Source: Octopus sinensis (taxonomy: Eukaryota). From it: a stretch of DNA of 64,000 nt. Below are positions 925 to 54,548 of the stretch, piece after piece. The number at the start of each line of letters is the position of its first letter. Position 1 is the stretch's first letter. The stretch spans positions 2,232,001 to 2,296,000 of the forward strand of contig NC_042997.1 in the NCBI RefSeq assembly GCF_006345805.1, in the 5' to 3' direction. The notes under the pieces were generated by a model. That model ran no database searches, had not been told where the DNA came from, and worked only from the letters and a program-made list of their open reading frames with translations. A program made the translations under genes and the position numbers.

Positions 925-1957
925 CAACTATTGGCAGAGGATTATCTGAGTGAATTCCAAATGCAACAAATTCCAGAAATAGAAGTACTCGAAACAAGCA
1001 GAGAAAAGGCTAAGCGTATGAAAACCTGTGCTTTAGATATTGTTACAAATAAATGGCAAGAAAAGCCTCTCAATGGCAAATATCCAAAGAGACCTAGTAG
1101 TGCAGATGTTGACAAAGCCCTTACTATCAATGGTTTGTGCCCTCTGGCTTAAAATCAGAAACAGAAGGGTTTATCATAGCAGCCAAAGATCAATGACTAC
1201 CTACAAGGAACTACCAGGCTAACATATTAAAGAACAGCAGTAGCCCAACATGTGATTCTCAACTACAAAATGAAGCCATTGATAATGTTGTCTCCATGTG
1301 CAGTCTTCTTGTGCCTACAGAGTATCTCAACATGCATGATAAAGCAGTACAGTGTATTCACTGGGTAATCTGCAAAAACCTGGAACTACCACAAGATAAA
1401 AACAGTTTGGAACACAAATCACTCCCAGTGGAACTTTGCCATAGCAACTGACAGAAAGATACGAATAGGTCAGACATTATACTGAAAGACTTAAGACAAA
1501 AATCATACCACCTCGTTGATATGACTGTCCTAATCGACATAAATGTATTTGTGATGTCCTACTGAGCAAGTCTTGAAATAGAAATTGGCAAAATGTAGAG
1601 CCTCATGACAAAACACTACTTGTTGTCATAAGTGTCCAAGGAATCGTAGCAAAAAGAGCTTATTGCTACCTAGCTTAGATACCAGAAAACACCAAAATGG
1701 CAGAAATTCAGAAGACAGTGTTCATAAGAACTGCCCATATCTTACATAAAATACTGTGTATGTAATCTCAAATTATAAAACACAATCATGATTTTCTTAC
1801 TTTTTCTTAAACATTATTGAGAACAATACTATGCACAAAACCAATTATATAACACCATAGGCATAACACTATCATGAAATTCTAACTTGTTGTTTCTTGA
1901 GGTCTCTGTGTGAGACCTGGAGCCAACATGTACAAGTACAAAGCAAAGGCCAAATAT
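925..1957 (+). mobile_element. Decayed 3' fragment of a second Dong/R4-like subfamily
   Basis: KWQEKPLNGKYPKR..ADVDKALT, GLKSETEGFIIAAKDQ and remnants of the knuckle and RLE, with stops and frameshifts. Flanked by (AAT)n at 846-915 and 1958-2080. Confidence 0.85.
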
Positions 1958-2209: not shown

Positions 2210-2839
2210 ACTTTTTTTTTCTTCTTTCAAATTTGCTTCCATTTCTTGCCGAGTGTCTTCCCGACTCTTAGGGCAAAGAAACTCATAGTATACATTGGTA
2301 GGCCATTAAACCAAACTCAATAGTTCGTTAATTTTTTTTAATTTAAAAAAAAAAAATTTTTTAAGTTAAATTAAAATACAAGAGCAGCAACAGTTCTCAC
2401 ATCAACAATTCTGTTCTCAATACGTGTGATGTACCAGTTAAGACAGTTTTTTGCACTTCTTGCAGGGATGGTAAGCCAGGGATCATTCTCATATAATTTT
2501 CGGTTCCCTTCTTGATCATTCCTAGTGCTCCTACGATCACTGGTATTGTAACCGCCTTGAGATGCCACATTTTCTCAATTTCAATGAGTAGGTCTTTATA
2601 TTTTCTGAGCTTGTCAAACTCTTTCGCTGAGATATTATGATCACAGGGGATGCTCATGTCGATCAATAAGCAACCTTTATTGTTTTGGTCTTTCACAACA
2701 ATATCTGGTTTATTGGCATTGATGGTTCGGTCTGTATGTACTGGAAAGTCCCACAGAATGGTTACATTTTCTCCTTCAGTTACAGCCTCAGGGTGGTGAT
2801 TATACCACTTGTCGGGAGTTTTGATATTGTAATGCCGAC

Positions 2840-2846
<7 letters not shown>
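2210..2846 (-). mobile_element. Short 3' copy of the same Dong-like family as 44047-46590
   Basis: The reverse complement is near-identical by eye to ~45971-46590 (KDQNNKGCLLIDMSIPCDHNISAKEFDKLRKYKDLLIEIEK plus the same 3' UTR). It is flanked on both sides by (ATT)n. Confidence 0.93.
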
Positions 2847-5419: not shown

Positions 5420-6194
5420 GAAAGCAAAGTCCCAACAATGGCTGAGAAGATCAGGACTCAAAGCAGAGACTGAAGGATTTGTATTTGCAACAAAAGATCA
5501 AAGCGTCCCCACCAAAAATTACCAAAAACTTATAATTAATAGAAACATAACTAGTAACTGCAGAATATATGGAGATGGTGAAGAAACAATAAATCATACT
5601 GCCTCTGGCGTCCCAGTCCTGGCTATGGAGGAATATATTCACAGACACAAGAGATTTGGTATCTTTATACACTGGAAGCTATGACAACGTTATGGAATAA
5701 CAAGAGAAAAAATGGTATAGGCACACGCCAGATAAGGTCACAGAAAGTAAGAATGCAACCATACTCTGGGATATGCCAATATACACAGATAGAGAAATTG
5801 TGGCCAATAAAACGGGTATTGTTATCAGATATCACCAACAAAAGATTGCTTTCTCATCAATGTATCAATACCAACAGCTGACAAAAATTCTCTAAACGAA
5901 ATGGAGAAACTTCCAAAGTACAAAGACCTGAAAATAGAGGTAACTCGAATATGGAGTCTAAACACGGAAAAAATTCCTATTATTTTATGCTCATTAGGTA
6001 TGACAAAAAATTTCAGGCAAATGCATAACAAAAACACCGGGACTAACAAATATATTTAACATACAGAAAATAGCACTACTAGACACCGCACACAATTTCA
6101 ATCCAGTAACAATAAGAGCATCACAACAAACCATAGCACATACTCATGTCTGCCCTCGATAGTGCAGTGAAAGAACGTAACAAAAATAAGACTA

Positions 6195-6198
<4 letters not shown>
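5420..6198 (+). mobile_element. Decayed 3' fragment of a third Dong/R4-like subfamily
   Basis: QQWLRRSGLKAETEGFVFATKDQ, CRIYGDGEETINH, ILWDMPIYTDREIVANK, KYKDLKIEVTRIW. Preceded by (AAT)n(GAA)n and followed by (AAT)n. Confidence 0.87.
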
Positions 6199-6405: not shown

Positions 6406-8264
6406 TGGGGATAAATTAAGTGAATATTACGATGATTAGATCCCCAAAACATGTCGGTAGGTGGTGGAATACAGAATTCTCAATGGAAAAATCTACTCGT
6501 AAAAAAAGAAAAGGAAATATAACTCAATGAGTGAAAGTAGCACTGCATTATTTGATGTTTGAAAATGTGTTATTTCATAATACGCTTCTAAATTATTCTC
6601 CCATTTTAGCCTCTGTGCTGTAAATGTCATAAATGAAAGTTGAATTTCCGCAACTGGAAATGTAGCTTTCAAACCTAACACTTGTATCCGTATATATATT
6701 TAGCTTTTTTTTTTTTTTACATTTTTGTATAACTGAACTGCCTCATTCATTTGATATGCCTCCAGAGCTCACTTGTAAATAGCTTCGGTGTATCGTATGA
6801 CACTAATTTATGATATAAGCATATACATAATACTATTTCTAAATAAATCATTTTAACTTCTTTTTAAAAAACATTTTACATCAACTGGTGATAACATGAT
6901 ATTACCAGAAAATGAAGAAGAAATTGGAATTTACATATCGAATTCTCACGTAGATTTAACAGAAAATATAATAGATTTGTCCTTCATTTGAATGTATACG
7001 TATGTTATATGACTGAAATTTAATTCTCTTTAATACTAATGAAATGTGGTGAAACATTTCCACAACAAAGCTTCCATTTAGTTCTATATCAATAACTTCA
7101 AATTTACATGCACAACAAAACTTTTCATGTTCGATAAAGCAATCTCAACAGTTATTGATTGACTAAGTTTTATGAATAAGAGAAAAAAAACAATACATTC
7201 GAAAATTTAAACCGTTAATGATTAATTCTTAACAATCCATTATTTGAATTGTACTCGCCACCATATTTTCTCGTATTTTGAGATGTTAAAAACGCGAGGC
7301 GTTGGCTATGCTTTGTTTTTCAATTAAACGGCATTTGATGCAATTTCATTTCATGAGAGTTATACACGTAATATTCACACAAGATTTCACACGATTCTCA
7401 TTAACATACTTGCAAATAGTTGTTAGAAATGCACAACATGGGGCAAACTATAATAAATGTTCATAGCTTTTAAATATCAATTACTGAAGAATTCGAAATT
7501 AATCATGGATCATCTACTAAATCAATCGTGACAATCTCTACTTTTTATAATAAGATTAATATAACGTAATTAAAAATTGTAATTACATTTCTTGAATATG
7601 CTGGATTTGCCTATCATTGAGCACGTTACTTCATATTGCATTCTAAATAATGTGGCAACTGATGTCGTTTGAAATAATAATTTTTAGAGCAATAAAAATT
7701 GTCGTTGCAACAATGAGCACAACGTTTATTATTAATTAATCTCTTGGAGTTTCATTTAAATTTCTTCGTTATGTTATGCTTCTATTGCTCATTGATGTAA
7801 ATGTATGCACAATGCAACAGGCTCATACATTAAATATTGGGAATATGTTCACATCTTTAATATATATTTAATTCATATACAATATTTTTTTTAATTTTGA
7901 GCAGTCTTCAAAATTCTACATAAATATGCTAATCGTATTTTTATTACGCGTACGTTAGATGTACATATTGCAGTAATTGTCATTCCAGTTACAATTTTGT
8001 AAAAAACTCTCGTTTTCACGTTACGTGTCAAGAGAGATTTTTTCTTATATTATACAATAGAATAGGCTTGTCACAGCAGTTTTCAATTGTATTTATATCC
8101 ACTCGCTCTGTTTTAATTACTGTTTACGAACTAAAGGCAAATATATTTTCAATCCCAAAACTGTTCAAGTTCTAGGGAGATAGCTTACGGATGTCTATGT
8201 TTCTGTAGAGTGAAATTTACAGAAAAATATTTCGTCTGAATGTCGGAATGTCGTGAGAATATTA

Positions 8265-8577
8265 CGTACATTATTTATATTATTTACATTTGACGGATAT
8301 TTGTTTGTTGTTAACACAATATTTCGGCTGATATACCCTCTAGCCTTGGGGAAATTTCGAACCTGGGTGCCAAAATCAGAAAGTCTTTCAATATGATGGG
8401 TTTTTTGGTTTTTTTAAAATTTATATATTAGTCATTCACTGGTACAACACAAAAAAACCCCAAATATATGGCACACTAGGCATAACAACAACGTGAACTT
8501 CCAACCTGTTGTCTCTTGAGGTCTCTGGGTGAGACTTGGAGCCAACTTGTACAAACATAAAGCAAAAGTCAAACATA

Positions 8578-8625
<48 letters not shown>

Positions 8626-8639
8626 TAATAATAATAATA

Positions 8640-8675
<36 letters not shown>

Positions 8676-19500: not shown

Positions 19501-20089
19501 GCTACGTACCCTATTTATAATATCATATTTACAATTAAAGAATTAAGGTTTAGAAAGTAGGCGTTAAATGCAGGATCCAAATACTGCTGGAGGTTAAGCA
19601 TCAGGTAGTGTGCCTGCAGAGCCACGCATGGCTTCCACGCTTTATCAGCGATACTGTGCGTTCATCGTTGGAACTACGTCCGGAATTCCGAGGTGCAGGT
19701 GGGGTATATTTTATATGCTTAATACGGAGGACGGGATGTAACTAGAAGATTTTTTAGCTTAACAGTCGTTCCGGCTTCATTCTGCACTGCTACTTAGTCG
19801 GCGTGGAACGATGTAATCACACCACATGTAATGCATAGTGCAAAAGTGCTTTATCAGATAACGTAAGGCTCTTCACAAGTTACTAGATTTACATACATAC
19901 ATACATGCATAAATACATATACAAACATATAAATGAGTGTATTTGTATACACACATATATGTATCGATATGATAAACGTATTTCCACACACACACACACA
20001 CGCACACACACGCACACACACATACGTACGCATATACACAAACACTCATGTTCACATATTTAAATACATGCTGTTACTTCCGTAACATT

Positions 20090-21270
20090 TTGATTTATAA
20101 TCTAATAGAATTCTCATATTATAGGGCTATTCGAAAATTTTCCGTGAAGATTTCAAAAATTTTTCGAGAAAATTTTCTGTGAAAATTTTACAAAAATTTT
20201 TGGGTAAAATTTTCGTAAAATTTTCACCGAAAATTTTCTCGAAAAGTTTATCGATAATTTTCACGGAAAATTTTCGAATAGCCCTATAATATGAGAATTG
20301 TATTAGATTATAAATCAAATTTTTGGAAAATTTTCACCGAAACTTTTCTCGAAAAATTTTTCGATAATTTTCACGGAAAATTTTCCCCGAAAATTTTTGC
20401 CATACTTTGTGATTTTGGCACCGCTGGTTTTCCATACTTTATGATTTTGGCACAGCTGGCCTTCCATACTTTGTGATTTTGGCACCGCTGGCCTTCCATA
20501 CTTTGTGATTTTGGCACCGCTGGTTTTCCATACTTTGTGATTTTGGCACAGCTGGCCTTCCATACTTTGTGATGTTGGCACCGCTGGCCTTCCATACTTT
20601 TTCCAAAATTTTCACCGAAAATTTTACTCAAAAATTTTTACAAAATTTTCCCCAAAAATTTTTCGAAAATTTTCGCCGAAAACTTTCCCCAAAAATTTGT
20701 GATTTTTCGAAAATTTTTGCCATACTTTGTGATTTTGGCACCGGTGGCTTTCCATACTTTGTGATTTTGGCACCGCTGGCTTTCCATACTTTGTGATTTT
20801 TGCACCGTTGGCCTTGCATACTTTGTGATTTTGGCACAGTTGGCCTTCCATACTTTGTGATTTTGGCACCGCTGGCCTTCCATACTTTATGATTTTGGCA
20901 CCGCTGGCCTTCCATACTTTTTCCAAAATTTTCACCGAAAATTTTACCCAAATATTTTTCTCGAAAAATTTTTCGATAAGTTTTACGGAAAATTTTCGAA
21001 AAATTTTTGGGGATAATTTTACCCAAAAATTTTTGTAAAATTTTCACCAAAACTTTTCTCGAAAAATTTTACGATAATTTACACGGAAAATTTTCCCCAA
21101 AAATTTTTCCAAAATTTTCACCGAAAATTTTCCACGAAAATATTTTGAAAATCTCCACCGAAAATCTTCCCCCAAAATTTTTGGAAAATTTTCACCGAAA
21201 ATTTTCCCCCAAAATTTTTTGGAAATATCCAACGAAAATTTTCCCCAAAAATTTTTGGAAAATTTTCAAA
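20090..21270. repeat. Composite satellite: inverted repeat + GAAAATTTTC-rich DNA + two 32-bp tandem arrays
   Basis: Inverted repeat 20090-20150 / 20260-20320. The unit ccatactttgtgattttggcaccgctggcctt occurs ~6 times at 20400-20600 and ~6 times at 20720-20920. Confidence 0.9.
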
Positions 21271-40504: not shown

Positions 40505-40868
40505 ATTAATAATAAAATATTAGGGAATAAATCCAAACTTACAGGGAAAAATCAGATTTAGGATTGAATCCAATTTTATAGTAAAATATTATATTATATA
40601 AAAATTAGAGATAAAACCACTATTAGGCAAATCAAACAATGAAAAACTTAAGCCAGTACATAAAATTAATTAATTTATATTATTTTAAATATATATCAAA
40701 ATTATTAAAAGTTTAATAAAAGATAATGAGTAAAACACGTTATCTTTTATTAAAATTTTAATACTTTTGATATATATTTAAAATAATATAAATTAATTAA
40801 TTTTATGTATTGGCTCAAGTTTTTCATTGTTTGATTTGCCTAATAGTGGTTTTATCTCTAATTTAATA
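40505..40868. repeat. Fold-back repeat family copy 1, in (TA)n
   Basis: A unique ~95-bp leader, then arms ~40602-40727 and ~40740-40864. Confidence 0.88.
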
Positions 40869-40919
40869 TAATATATATATATATATATATATACATTGTT
40901 GCACACATTGTACACGAAC

Positions 40920-43356: not shown

Positions 43357-43408
<52 letters not shown>

Positions 43409-43427
43409 TAATAATAATAATAATAAT

Positions 43428-43460
<33 letters not shown>

Positions 43461-43548
43461 ATTAATAATGATAATAATTATAATAATAATAATAATAATA
43501 ATAATATAATAATATAATAATATTAATAATAATAATATAATAATAATA

Positions 43549-43579
<31 letters not shown>

Positions 43580-43593
43580 AATAAATAATAATA

Positions 43594-43627
<34 letters not shown>

Positions 43628-43631
<4 letters not shown>

Positions 43632-43995
43632 TATCAATACAAACAGATCACAACGTGTCTCTAAAAGAAATGGAGAAACTTTCAAAATAGAAAGACCTGG
43701 AAATAGAGGTAACTCGAATGTGGAATCTAAAAACTGAAACAATCCCTATCTAATAGTAGGCGCATTAGGTATGATTAAAAAAATATTCAGACAAATACAT
43801 AACAAAAATACCAGGGCTTACAAACACATATAACATACAGAAAATTGCACTACTGGGCATGCACACATCCTAGGCAAAACACTTTCAATACAGTTACCAT
43901 CAGAGCACCACAACAAATCAGAACACATACCCAAGGCACACAGATCCGCGCTCGGTAGTGAAGTGAAAGCACGCTATAAAAATAAATTTAATGAA

Positions 43996-43997
<2 letters not shown>
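43628..43997 (+). mobile_element. 3' end fragment of the third Dong-like subfamily, directly upstream of the long copy
   Basis: Similar to 5860-6198 (KDLEIEVTRMWNLKTETIP, IQKIALLG, UTR gtagtgaagtgaaagcacg). (AAT)n on both sides. Confidence 0.87.
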
Positions 43998-44046
<49 letters not shown>

Positions 44047-44047
<1 letters not shown>

Positions 44048-46419
44048 TAAATGCAGACTGGATTATACAAACTGAAGGATCCTACCAAAATTTACAACAA
44101 CAAGCATGGGAAGACATCACAATAGCAGACCTAAGAAAGGCACTCACGAAGGCCCATAATTGGAAATCCCCCGGTAAAGATAGGGTGCCGAATTTCTGGC
44201 TCGCATCGCTCCCGTGCGCACACGGTAAGCTAGTTCAGCTGCTCAATGGAATTTTGAGAGACCCAAAGAAAACACCTGAATGGTTAGCAAGTGGCATTAC
44301 TTACCTACTCCCAAAGAATAACGAAACCAACCTTCCAAAAAACTATCGGCCTATAACCTGTCTATCCAGCACGTATAAAATCCTAACATTTATCCTGGCG
44401 GAGAAAACATATGCATTCATGGAGAAGAACGATATTTTCCCCATTGAACAAAAAGGGTGCCGCCGAGGCTCTTACGGATGCAAAGATCAACTGCTAATCA
44501 ATCGTATGATCCTTGAGAACTGTCACAACAAGCGCAGAAATCTCAGCACCACATGGATTGACTATAAAAAGGCCTTCGACAGTATACCGCATCCATGGAT
44601 CTTGAGATCGCTGGACATCTTTAAAATTTCCCCTGTGATTTCAAACTTCCTGAAGCACAATATGTCGTTGTGGAATACGAATCTCCAATTATACCACTCT
44701 AATGGAGTACTTGCCTCAGAAAATATAAACATCAACTGTGGAATTTTTCAAGGTGACTCACTTTCACCTTTAATATTCTGCATAGCCCTAATACCCCTTA
44801 CAAGTGAATTAAACAGAACAGGGTATGGGTATAAAATTGCCAATAAAAAAATAAGCCATCTATTTTATATGGATGACTTAAAACTTTATGGTAAAGACAA
44901 TAATGAACTTGAAGCCCTATTGCGCACCGTGAAAGCATTCAGCGATGACATCGGGATGGAGTTTGGACTTGAGAAGTGTGCCAAGGCCACTTTCCAGAAA
45001 GGGAAAGTGAAGACCACAAATTCAGTCGTGTTAGATGCTGACACAGTCATAAGAGAGCTTGAGCAAGAACAGACATACAAATATTTAGGGATAAATGAAG
45101 GCTCTGGTATTCAGCATGCAAGCATGAAAGAGAAAATCAGGAAGGAATGTTATAGGAGAGTTCGTGCAGTCCTGAAATCTGAACTAAATGCACGTAACAA
45201 GGTGTTAGCTATAAATTGCTTAGCAGTTCCAGTTGTTACTTATAGCTACAATGTGTTGAACTGGAATATGAGTGAAGTAAAGAATATAGATAGAAAAATA
45301 CGCAAGCTGCTGAGTTGTAATAGGATGCACCGCCCAAAGGCAGACGTAGATCGCCTTTACTTTCCCAGAGCCCAAGGAGGTCGAGGCCTGATCCAATTTG
45401 AACTAGCTTACAAAACAACCACAATTGGACTGGCCAATTATCTCGAAATATCGAATGACTGGATGCTAAAGCTCGTGGAAAATCACGAGAGACGAAAGAA
45501 GCTTCCTTCTATCATCAAGGAAAGCAAAAAATTTACTATTGATCTCGTGCAGGATACCCAAACTGAACAACCCGAGGGAAGTACGGCAACTATTGTTGCA
45601 AAGAAGGTGAAAATGATGGCAATGAAAAAAGCGCACGAGCAATTGGCTGATAGGTGGGAGGAGAAACCTCTGCACGGCAAATATGTGACCCGCAGCAAAC
45701 AAGCTGATGTTGACCAGAAGCAAACCCATCAGTGGCTGTGGAGCTCAGGGCTAAAAGCAGAGAGCGAAGGTTTCATCCTGGCTGCTCAAGACCAAAGCCT
45801 ATTAACCCGGAACTACCAGGCCAATGTGATGAAAAATGGAGCAGACCCAAAATGCCGATTCTGCAACGACATGATTGAAACAGTGGACCACCTAATCTCT
45901 GGATGTAAAGTCTTAGCACCAGTGGAGTATAAATTAAGACATGACAGAGTTGGCCAATATCTCCACTGGCTAATAAGTCGGCATTACAATATCAAAACTA
46001 CCGACAAGTGGTATAATCACCACCCTGAGGCTGTAACTGAAGGAGAAAATGTAACCATTCTGTGGGACTTTCCAGTACATACAGACCGAACCATCAATGC
46101 CAATAAACCAGATATTGTTGTGAAAGACCAAAACAATAAAGTTTGCTTATTGATCGACATGAGCATCCCCTGTGATCATAATATCTCAGCGAAAGAGTTT
46201 GACAAGCTCAGAAAATATAAAGACCTACTCATTGAAATTGAGAAAATATGGCATCTCAAGGCGGTTACAATACCAGTGATCGTAGGAGCACTATGAATGA
46301 TCAAGAAGGGAACCGAAAATTATATGAGAATGATCCCTGGCTTACCATCCCTGCAAGAAGTGCAAAAGATTGTCTTAACTGGTACATCACACGTATTGAG
46401 GAGAGCATTGTCGATGTGA
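44047..46419 (+). CDS. RT-RLE polyprotein (partial; one premature TGA at 46294-46296, probable natural stop 46417-46419)
   Basis: ORF-track frame 43963..46296. Its first ~28 aa come from the upstream element's UTR and the AAT tract. The frame stays open after the TGA (MIKKGTENY...RRALSM*), and the sister copy at 2397-2696 has GGA (GALGMIKKG) at that codon. Confidence 0.88.
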
Positions 46420-46589
46420 GAACTGTTGCTGCTCATGTATTTTAATTTAACTTTAAAAAAATAAAAAAAAAATAACGAACTACTGAGTTTGGTTTAATGG
46501 CCTACCAATATACACTATGAGTTTCTTTGCCCTAGGAGTCGGGAAGACACTCGGCAAGAGATGGAAGAAAATTTGAAAGAAGAAAAAAA

Positions 46590-46590
<1 letters not shown>
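44047..46590 (+). mobile_element. 5'-truncated RLE-type non-LTR retrotransposon, R4/Dong-like, inserted in (AAT)n
   Basis: RT motifs KSPGKD, YRPITCL, QKGC, WIDYKKAFDS, GIFQGDSLSPLIF, YMDDLKLY and YKYLG. Also a CCHC knuckle CRFC-x8-H-x4-C, the RHD motif and the RLE core KPDIVV...LIDMSIP...K. A ~170-nt 3' UTR ends in an A-run followed by (AAT)n, and (AAT)n also lies at the 5' junction. Confidence 0.95.
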
Positions 46591-47765
<1,175 letters not shown>

Positions 47766-47840
47766 AAGAAGAGGAACAACAACAACAACAACATCGAAAA
47801 ACACCTTAGGAATGAGAACCCAGGTTCGAAGTTTCCCCAA

Positions 47841-47886
47841 GACCCCTGATGAAGGCTGGAGGGTATATTAGCCGAAACGTTGTGTT
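47841..47886 (+). ncRNA. Minimal hammerhead motif in a short PLE pLTR-like repeat (47790-47945)
   Basis: CTGATGA-a-GGCTG-gagggtatat-TAGCC-GAA-ACGT-T-gtgtt, with a palindromic ACGT stem III. The same repeat occurs at 8686-8828 (+) and 8265-8370 (-). Confidence 0.65.
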
Positions 47887-47960
47887 AACAATAGAGAATA
47901 TAAGGACAAATATCCGTCAATTATAAATAATGTAAATAATGTACGTACAGATATATATAC

Positions 47961-51654: not shown

Positions 51655-52701
51655 TCAATGATTAAGGGTAACATCTATTAATTATTAATTAATTTCGCCA
51701 AGTAGTGTTCAGTATGTAAAAGGACCATTCAAGGCGTATTCAATATATTACGTTACATAATTAGGGCTCAGTAAAATAATTTACTTTGCAACATACTGAA
51801 ATTTTTAGAAATAGCAGCCAAAAATTTTTTTTAGTCATTTCCACTACTTTAAGAAGAGTCTCCCGGATAGTGTTTACTCAAAAATAATTCACGTAGATAT
51901 GGAGGGAAAATACAAAATATCACATGTACAAAGATTATTTGAGAATGCTCACGTTACTAGATTAGTCGAATTAAACTCGACATTTCTTTCGTCAGCTAAA
52001 CATTTCTTAATTTGGATTTGAAAGCACTAAAAAACTGAACATACCCATCCGACATTAATCATCTCAGACAAACATCTCCAAGCTGCCAGTGCCAGCAAAT
52101 TCAAACAGTACGAGTGAAGATTTATGTTCTTCCCGCTTCCATTCACGTGAGTTATATAGTAAACAGCTTATAACGGTGAGAACCGCAGTAAAAGAACAGG
52201 GAGAAAGGAATTGTATTATCAATGATTAAAGGTAAAATCAATTAATTATTAATTAATGTTCAGTATGTAAAAGGACCATTCAAGGCGTAATCAATATATT
52301 ACGTTATATAATTAGTGCTCAGTAAAATAATTTACTTTGCCACATACTGAAAGTTTTAGAAATAGCAGCTAAACAGTTTTTTTAGCCATGTCCACTACTT
52401 TAAGAAGTGTCTCCCGGATAGTGTTTACTCAAAAATAATTCACGTAGAGATGGAGGGAAAATAAAAAATATCACATGTACAAAGTTTATTTGAGAACGCT
52501 CACGTTTCTAGATTAGTCGAATTAAACTCGACATTTCTTTCGTCAGCTCCATATCTACGTGAATTATTTTTGAGTAAACACTATCCGCGAGACTCTTCTT
52601 AAAGTAGTGGAAATGGCTAAAAAAACATTTTGGCTGCTATTTATTAAAATTTCAGTATGTGGCAAAGTAAATTATTTTACTGAGCCCTAATTATATAACG
52701 A
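51655..52701 (-). mobile_element. PLE-like unit: two direct ~335-bp repeats plus a terminal inverted partial copy
   Basis: Direct repeats at 51655-51997 and 52219-52548. Segment 52549-52701 is the reverse complement of ~51750-51903. Hammerhead-like motif on the minus strand at 52490-52548. Short (TA)n at both ends. Confidence 0.75.
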
Positions 52702-52742
52702 TATATATATATATAAAAAGGAGATGTGGAACACGAGTTGTG

Positions 52743-53049
52743 ATATATAAAAAAGGAAATGAAGAAAATGCTGACAAAATAATTTAAGTAATTTAAGTAA
52801 TCTAATTAGTGAAAGTTCTTTTTAACGGTTGCGCATTTGTTATGCTTATCAAAAGATAATTTGTTTAAGAGAGATAGAGTTCTTTTTTGATAGATTTTTA
52901 GGAAAAAAATCTATCAGAAAAGAACTCTATCTCTCTTTAAAAAATTATCTTTTGATAAGCATAACAAATGCGCAACCGGTAAAAAGAACTTTCACCTAAT
53001 TAGATTACTTAAATTACTTAAATTATTTTGTCAGCATTTTCTTCATTTC

Positions 53050-53060
<11 letters not shown>
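52743..53060. repeat. Near-perfect ~155-bp-arm fold-back
   Basis: Arms 52743-52899 and 52904-53060 with a loop of only a few nt. Contains a degenerate hammerhead-like motif at 52949-52986 and ends in (TA)n. Confidence 0.9.
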
Positions 53061-53127
<67 letters not shown>

Positions 53128-53479: not shown

Positions 53480-54548
53480 TAACTTGCTTAATTTAAAAAA
53501 AGTTTTAATGAAAAATATCAACTAATTAATTAATAATGTATTCACTCTTGTTGTTTACAACTTCTTCCCAACATTCAACAAGATTTTCAATACCTCGTTT
53601 GTAGAAATCACCCGATTTCGGCTCGAAAGATTTATCCAGCCAAGCTGTCAATTCTGGTGGAAATGCATTGGAAATGTACGGCAGGTGTGACAGCACTTGC
53701 CAGCCATGCGTTTGAATGGCTTCCTTGGTCATATTGGTGATATGAGGGCGGGCGTAAATAACGTGAAATACGGGATGTAAAGGGGTGAATACATAAACAA
53801 CGAGAAAAACAAATCGAAAATAGGACAAGTACCATAAAGAACAACCATCCAACAGTTGTCGGCTATCCATCAACTCCTCATTTCGAGTATTGAACAATGA
53901 TATGAGTCTTCGAAAGGCAATTGTTACCTGAAGCCATACTAAAATCAAGGATTCACGGAGGGTCACAGTTGGTAACGAAACAGGACAGTGGAAACATGCA
54001 ATGAAACTGAACGAAAATAAGCATGCTGGGTCTTTAGACCAGTCAAGGCTAACATAGCGAACGCTAGAGAAATATATTCTATTGACAAGAGGAAAGATTG
54101 AAGAGAGAGACATATGGGATACGTGCACTCTCTATGATAGTCGTGAAGGTAAAGAAAAATAATCGCGTGAGGAAAAGAAAGATGGACGATGGGCACGTGT
54201 GAGCAAAGAGAGAGAGAGAGAGAGAGCGCAAAGGAGAAATAGAAAAAGAAAACGGTGAAGATTTGCTTGCTCGTCACCGCTCAACTCATGGACACAAGAC
54301 TGGCTTTTACATCAATATGAAGCGGCGTATGGAATATCTTAGCCCCGGTAAACAAACGACATCGCGCGTGAGACAAGATCTTCATCCGAGTAAAACGATG
54401 TTCTGCATATGGTGAGACTGGGAAGGGATGATCCATTACGAATTGCTTGAACGGAATCAACCGGTCAATGCGGAGCTCTATTTTCAACTGATGGAACGAT
54501 TCTACGAGGCTATTCAAGAGAAAAGAACTCATCGACAGCATGGACAGT
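53480..54548. mobile_element. Rearranged mariner fragments (3' end on -, DDD-domain piece on +)
   Basis: Minus strand GWQVLSHLPY...FYKRGIENLVECWEEVVNNKSEYI. Plus strand [34 protein letters not shown]. Confidence 0.75.

Follow-up and report, generated by a model that had tools for sequence, protein, structure and literature searches.

An apparently young, high-copy and probably R4/Dong-like retrotransposon of Octopus sinensis sits strand-specifically within pre-existing AAT tracts

Among retrotransposons with a restriction-like endonuclease (RLE), Dong is the best point of comparison for the element considered here. Dong targets TAA in the silkworm, in mosquito, and in Biomphalaria, a snail (PMC3812793), and the same target is given for the Dong elements of most insects, molluscs, and cnidarians (PMC7998251). 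The R4/Dong group was described as marked by a diverged Myb domain and no zinc fingers (PMC7998251), and some families of HERO, included among the RLE clades described elsewhere, are stated to target microsatellites (PMC4640811). According to three further reports, Dong-R4 is an expanded ancient family of coleoids (PMC8967140), a full-ORF Dong consensus from O. bimaculoides gave no evidence of recent activity (PMC9115989), and O. vulgaris has five Dong-R4 families with recent activity, amounting to 4.7 Mb of sequence and 1129 insertions lying ≤2% from consensus (PMC13282606). The O. vulgaris study states that published brain-activity work did not give the sequences of its elements, and no target-site analysis was found in it, the term "target site" being absent from it (PMC13282606). 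Neither a target-site study of octopus Dong nor a Dong-dependent SINE was found among the best 20 literature matches in openly accessible journals, and a literature search for a biochemical study of a Dong protein returned none from the text available.

The locus lies in a 64,000-nucleotide stretch of O. sinensis DNA (RefSeq assembly GCF_006345805.1, contig NC_042997.1, positions 2,232,001 to 2,296,000), the whole of which was analysed and is called the window below (Table 1). The genome carries molluscan haemocyanin genes, one unit of which scores best among single units against the octopus protein PDB 1js8 (851 bits, compared with 732 for the squid protein 4yd9_C), in keeping with an octopod host. 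The copy under study is very probably an inactive, 5′-truncated member of a young, high-copy non-LTR element, here termed family A, that likely belongs to R4/Dong and lies strand-specifically in pre-existing (AAT)n; its intact copies likely use target-primed reverse transcription (TPRT) to insert.

Table 1. Positions of family A, related fragments, and AAT tracts in the window
Feature	Position	Strand	Basis
Decayed Dong-like family C fragment, flanked by AAT tracts	931..1957	+	Self-match, tract listing
Sister family A copy, last 142 codons and 3′ UTR	2212..2845	-	Self-match
Decayed family-B-like fragment, AAT at end	5430..6197	+	Self-match, tract listing
Family C 3′ UTR fragment, AAT at end, left edge approximate	8460..8578	+	Self-match of 1841-2052 to 8460-8672
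AAT tract 5′ of family B fragment	43363..43630	+	Tract listing
Older Dong-like family B 3′ fragment, in whose tail the young copy sits	43631..43995	+	47% amino acid identity to P0002
(AAT)16 tract, upstream half of target, also tail of the older family B fragment	43996..44043	+	Tract listing
5′-truncated family A copy (young, Dong-like)	44044..46590	+	Residues 446-1235 of open frame P0002, plus 3′ UTR
Remnant frame RT-CCHC-RHD-RLE, one in-frame stop	44047..46419	+	Translation
Reverse transcriptase domain, YMDD at 44866-44877	44311..45096	+	Pfam RVT_1 PF00078, residues 89-350, E 1.4e-29
CCHC zinc knuckle (CxxC..H...C, 45853-45906) and RHD (45937-45945)	45853..45945	+	Motifs; PF13966 E 6e-05, under the curated cut-off
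Restriction-like endonuclease core PD..D..K (KPDIV..D..K)	46105..46218	+	Motif; alignment A1 profile aligns to R2 proteins here
Premature TGA, private to window copy	46294..46296	+	TGA in 1/65 copies
3′ UTR, short A run at end	46420..46590	+	Sequence
Compound AAT/GAT/AAT tract downstream of window copy	46591..47089	+	Tract listing
Element X, non-coding, ~560 bp, AAT tracts either side	47098..47654	+	Comparison among loci
AAT tract 3′ of element X	47655..47735	+	Tract listing

The window copy was originally predicted to hold about 750 uninterrupted codons over reverse transcriptase (RT), CCHC, RHD, and RLE, and the count came close: the frame at 44047-46416 (+) has 749 open codons, a single TGA beginning at 46294, and 40 codons more before the stop at 46417-46419. 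The motifs of all four domains fall at columns that are highly conserved among 77 homologues. At the codon occupied by the TGA, 58 of 65 copies read GGA and one reads GAA, the window copy being the only one with TGA (five were unparsed); the sister copy has G at the stop position, in agreement with the proposed GGA. The description of the copy as one nonsense codon from open was accurate as to the single stop. However, the copy retains residues 446-1235 only, the 5′ UTR and codons 1-445 of a 1235-codon frame, and with them the start, being missing, and four further missense changes lie at columns that are 90-99% conserved among the 77 homologues. One codon from open is, owing to this truncation and these changes, not one codon from working, and the copy is dead as well as front-truncated. 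Compared with the L036 copy, which has a natural 1235-codon frame, it is 97.9% identical, with 25 differing positions.

Eleven full-length loci with both ends parsed were found to be 5.0-6.7 kb long, with a 5′ UTR of 1.2-2.8 kb. The full-length element has one 1235-codon frame (helical N-terminal domain, RT, CCHC, RHD, and RLE) and a 3′ UTR of ~170 bp. The 5′ UTR contains a ~470-bp tandem monomer and sub-repeats in variable number (L105, L113, L116, and L117); mouse L1 promoters also have a monomer 5′ UTR that varies in copy number. Thirty 5′-end loci share a common start point directly after the AAT tract, and 38 truncated copies have scattered 5′ ends and one fixed 3′ end, with no LTRs.

An AlphaFold model of the protein (pLDDT 88.9) gave R2 as its best structural match (E 3e-34, identity 16%). 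R2 (R2Bm and R2Tg; PDB 8gh6 and 9nl3) has the RT-CCHC-RLE layout and the fold in common with family A, and TPRT would be shared by analogy, although the two are 15-17% identical in structural alignment across the R2 structures. R2 carries N-terminal zinc fingers and occupies one 28S rDNA site, whereas family A has no fingers, lies in a dispersed microsatellite, and has no detected HDV-like ribozyme. No N-terminal zinc finger of the CxxC type was found in the first 450 residues of the open-frame protein P0002 or of four homologues, and the sole CxxC in P0002 is that of the C-terminal knuckle. The first 93 modelled residues form four helices (pLDDT 88) whose fold matches are weak, with a best Z of 6.2 and all values below 8. 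Zeste (Z 5.5, rmsd 2.9, 67 aligned) stands among these matches, TRF, ISWI SANT, and GT-1 also appear in the top rows at Z <8, and residues 145-215 of R2 match weakly (Z 5.1); the Zeste, TRF, SANT, and R2 matches together span Z 4-6. The Zeste, TRF, ISWI SANT, and GT-1 structures are Myb/SANT folds. Foldseek of this domain returned nothing at E≤0.001, Pfam gave no Myb match in the N-terminus, and comparison of the domain sequence with the PDB gave chance-level matches only. The weak four-helix matches agree with the diverged Myb domain described for R4/Dong (PMC7998251).

The succession of RT, CCHC, and RLE in a single ORF is the R4/Dong layout, and over its whole length the protein is 39% identical to an RT of Pediculus, a genus whose element is placed in the R4/Dong set in PMC7998251, the correspondence being by species and not by accession. 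The described Dong elements (Bombyx Dong, DongAg, DongBg, and Darwinula Dong1/2) resemble family A in their TAA/AAT target (PMC3812793, PMC7998251) and in the single RT and RLE ORF without zinc fingers, Dong having a diverged Myb-like N-terminus (PMC7998251). In the descriptions of Dong that were compared, no mention was found of a 5′ UTR with ~470-bp monomers, of full-length junctions with (AAG)n, or of a non-coding passenger. None of the sequences returned by the homologue searches was labelled Dong, R4, HERO, or NeSL, and family A likely belongs to the R4/Dong clade as judged by architecture and TAA target. Convergence on AAT by an element from a different RLE clade (HERO or NeSL-like) is another reading, and some HERO families do target microsatellites while the NeSL-related Togen targets (TG)n (PMC4640811); however, the lack of an N-terminal zinc finger, the 39% identity to the Pediculus RT, and a TAA target that matches Dong make such convergence very improbable. 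Three Dong-like homologues (P0114, P0126, and P0128) also have an OTU domain (PF02338, precomputed), and a protein of Penaeus japonicus (P0153) shows 55% identity to P0002, which puts it no further away than the other Dong families of the octopus genome and makes it a candidate case for horizontal transfer.

Target specificity was examined at 68 5′ junctions, which comprise 79 loci and the two window copies, minus six duplicates and seven loci whose element extended past the fetched edge or which repeated the window; several of the 5′ junction positions were placed by hand. A sense (AAT)4+ tract lies ≤60 bp upstream in 61 of the 68, compared with 3.1% of window positions, whereas (ATT)4+ does so in two of the 68, compared with 0.4% of window positions. 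The seven misses consist of four junctions with (AAG)n between, one duplicated 5′ end, one degenerate tract, and one opposite orientation (L064). At the 3′ side, (AAT)n on the sense strand, seen as TAA repeats, follows the end in all 40 parsed copies, as had been foreseen for the 3′ flanks, and AAT is visible by eye in the remaining eight of 48, whose ends were unparsed by motif. The same arrangement was observed in related families. Family B, the RT-RLE part of which is ~53-59% identical to that of family A, shows AAT ahead of 20 of its 25 full-length starts, and in 38 of 40 loci the divergent Dong-like elements nearby share the strand of the focal copy. For families A, B, and C and for element X, the sequence that follows the 3′ ends fits a single phase in which the downstream DNA begins AAT (AAT after 14/14 ends of family B and 14/14 of family C; GTAATAA after 44/58 of family A).

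Loosely AT-directed insertion, with the AAT association produced by selection against other sites, would draw on the fact that AAT tracts are non-coding and make up 2.6% of the window. Selection, however, leaves unexplained both the strand bias (61 versus 2) and the common 3′ phase, and none of the AT, AC, and ATAC tracts that were listed for the window contains a family copy, so that this explanation is scarcely credible.

Direct evidence on the age of the target came from a host repeat that contains the full-length copy L050 and has an AAT tract within it. A search with this repeat gave 975 candidates, of which 40 were listed and the best 20 fetched; in ten of these 20 paralogues the site is empty, the AAT-type tract being joined straight to the right flank. 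One family A insertion is common to three contigs and is full-length in L105/L106, where the right flank picks up again beyond the element (97.3% identity). The same tract holds another five independent insertions, namely a truncated family A copy (L091), three of family B (L083/L084, L095, and the full-length L099), and element X (L088), and in L087 the tract is followed by sequence of no assigned identity. The internal tract measures from ~12 to >200 bp across L085-L098. The empty sites are paralogues in one assembly and not alleles, and a search for the alternative haplotype of L020 gave other repeat copies only. Because empty paralogues exist and six independent insertions share the tract, this tract predates them and served as the target on six occasions; it is an insertion hot spot.

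These observations bear on the explanation that insertion has no sequence preference and that (AAT)n is a self-made 3′ tail, with the 5′ AAT arising from template jumps or from nearby older tails. AAT does follow every parsed 3′ end, and many 5′ tracts are indeed the tails of other Dong-like copies. Nevertheless, the tract is already present where paralogues of the host repeat, itself unrelated, are empty, and that repeat was entered repeatedly, and truncated copies with differing 5′ ends all abut AAT. With AAT thus found at 5′ junctions and in empty sites and not as a tail only, the self-made tail is very improbable indeed and is largely refuted. Family A sits strand-specifically within pre-existing (AAT)n, as the original prediction of sequence- and strand-specific insertion had held.

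The window itself contains a pile on one strand that reads, in order, AAT, family B fragment, AAT, young family A copy, AAT/GAT, element X, and AAT, and of the window's 15 AAT tracts, 12 directly adjoin members of family A, B, or C or element X. The sister copy lies on the opposite strand with sense-strand AAT at both ends (2842-2910 and 2192-2209) and is 94.8% identical in DNA to the window copy, of which it covers the last 142 codons and the 3′ UTR. The assertion that sense (AAT)n marks the 3′ end in any genomic orientation is correct for all six copies and genome-wide; within the window, its orientation part comes down to the sister, because all four older fragments lie on the + strand. Elsewhere in the window, a short repeat with a CTGATGA...GAAAC arrangement, presumably recalling the hammerhead of Penelope-like elements, occurs at 47776-47945 (+) and ~8250-8365 (-) with no Rfam match at gathering score. 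A 201-codon frame at 53526-54131 (-) resembles what we take to be a decayed mariner transposase end, long self-complementary stretches lie at 1-683, 20089-21268, 40586-40880, and 52294-53062, and a 32-bp tandem array lies at 20400-20920.

Searches of the genome itself gave first-look candidates numbering 1146 with the 3′ end, 1247 with the start of the RT, and 351 with the outermost 5′ end; these are not copy numbers, and the best 40 of each search were scored. Pairwise divergence among 50 long copies (1225 pairs) has a median of 1.2% and a minimum of 0.3%, in a sample of the most similar matches (best 40 of >1100 candidates) that represents the youngest layer of the family. Natural 1235-codon frames were found in three of 150 scored N-terminal matches, others having 1222, 1208, and 1167 codons. 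The natural open frames each deviate at 6-7 highly conserved columns, and some of these deviations are probably family-wide. Judged from these sequences, family A appears young, high-copy, and very abundant, and the low divergence among its best-matching copies supports the earlier view of a recently active-looking family. The proposed reconstruction of an active element proved unnecessary, because natural open frames exist. The suggested use as an R2-like insertion enzyme also fared poorly: the usefulness of R2 lies in its one defined site, whereas the target of family A would be a repeat scattered through the genome. Eight sequencing runs under four organism labels were compared in detail, and the element was present; contigs from three runs cover 30/30 bins of the ORF, in runs whose type was guessed as RNA, so that the coverage is no measure of transcription, strand, or autonomy. 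Between 66 and 82% of sampled words of the element are present in 20 sequencing runs under 12 organism labels, none of the runs listed being recorded as RNA.

The idea that the family is possibly uncharacterised in this lineage did not survive comparison with the literature. Dong-R4 is already described in octopus, as an abundant and recently active group (PMC13282606) and as a full-ORF consensus (PMC9115989), and molluscan Dong is already stated to target TAA (PMC3812793, PMC7998251). Octopus Dong-R4 (PMC13282606, PMC9115989, PMC8967140) comes from the same host group as family A, carries the same class label, and is abundant, with recent activity in O. vulgaris, in a comparison made by description only, and an octopus repeat library may already contain family A. 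The literature examined did not yield direct empty-site evidence in the octopus lineage, the passenger element X, or the behaviour of the 5′ junctions.

By analogy with R2, the protein would bind its own RNA and recognise the tract, a task that probably falls to the RLE and the Myb/SANT-like domain at the N-terminus. Since the downstream DNA starts at AAT, the RLE would nick the ATT strand, a placement that is blurred by microhomology; the target-site duplication is unreadable inside a microsatellite. The nicked 3′ end would prime cDNA synthesis, and early termination would yield truncated copies such as the window copy. An AAT tract would remain on both sides of each insertion, and because of these flanking tracts later Dong families and element X could stack in the same orientation.

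Extra G-containing leader bases were found in 25 of 30 full-length junctions, and (AAG)3+ was found in eight of the 30, whereas the 38 truncated junctions have none (Fisher p 0.0008). The first ~20 bases are repeated two or three times at 5′ junctions of both family A and family B (L055, L069, L126, L129, L133, L144, and L149). The (AAG)n and the repeated first bases suggest stuttering and template jumping at the RNA's 5′ end; alternatively, the upstream AAG may have been copied from a few source loci instead of arising by stuttering. A search for an HDV-like ribozyme at the 5′ end gave no family at E≤5 in two 5′-complete or near-complete loci, in which hairpins are present, and the RNA fold of the 5′ end has a z of -0.46. 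A crude ribozyme descriptor matched neither family A nor family B, and Rfam at gathering score gave no match within the window. The variable G-rich leaders are no less compatible with a 5′ end set by a promoter than with one made by a ribozyme.

Element X has a fixed 5′ start in several loci and is 5′-truncated in others, with AAT on both sides (the window copy, L052, L009, L032, and L019), and through L088 it is also found in the host-repeat tract used by Dong copies. Searches of element X gave no tRNA, no Rfam match, and no frame >59 codons, and comparison with the Dong copies gave no common 3′ sequence beyond one 20-bp match (E 0.012). Element X is likely a non-autonomous passenger. A broader reading, which we offer tentatively and regard as possible rather than probable, is that at least three Dong families, together with a 560-bp passenger that borrows their enzyme, have made the AAT landscape into a niche that amplifies itself, in which full-length insertions of an RLE element with a monomer 5′ UTR seed (AAG)n.

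Family A is no new kind of system, and it provides a clean case for the recognition of a simple repeat by an RLE protein, as opposed to a unique rDNA site. Such recognition is open to bench work because natural open copies are at hand, paralogous sites that are empty show the target, and junctions number in the thousands. Octopus TE biology gains a concrete candidate family. If the feedback between insertions and AAT tracts is real, one guild of retrotransposons would explain much of the trinucleotide-repeat load of its host, which would bear on assembly quality and on microsatellite markers.
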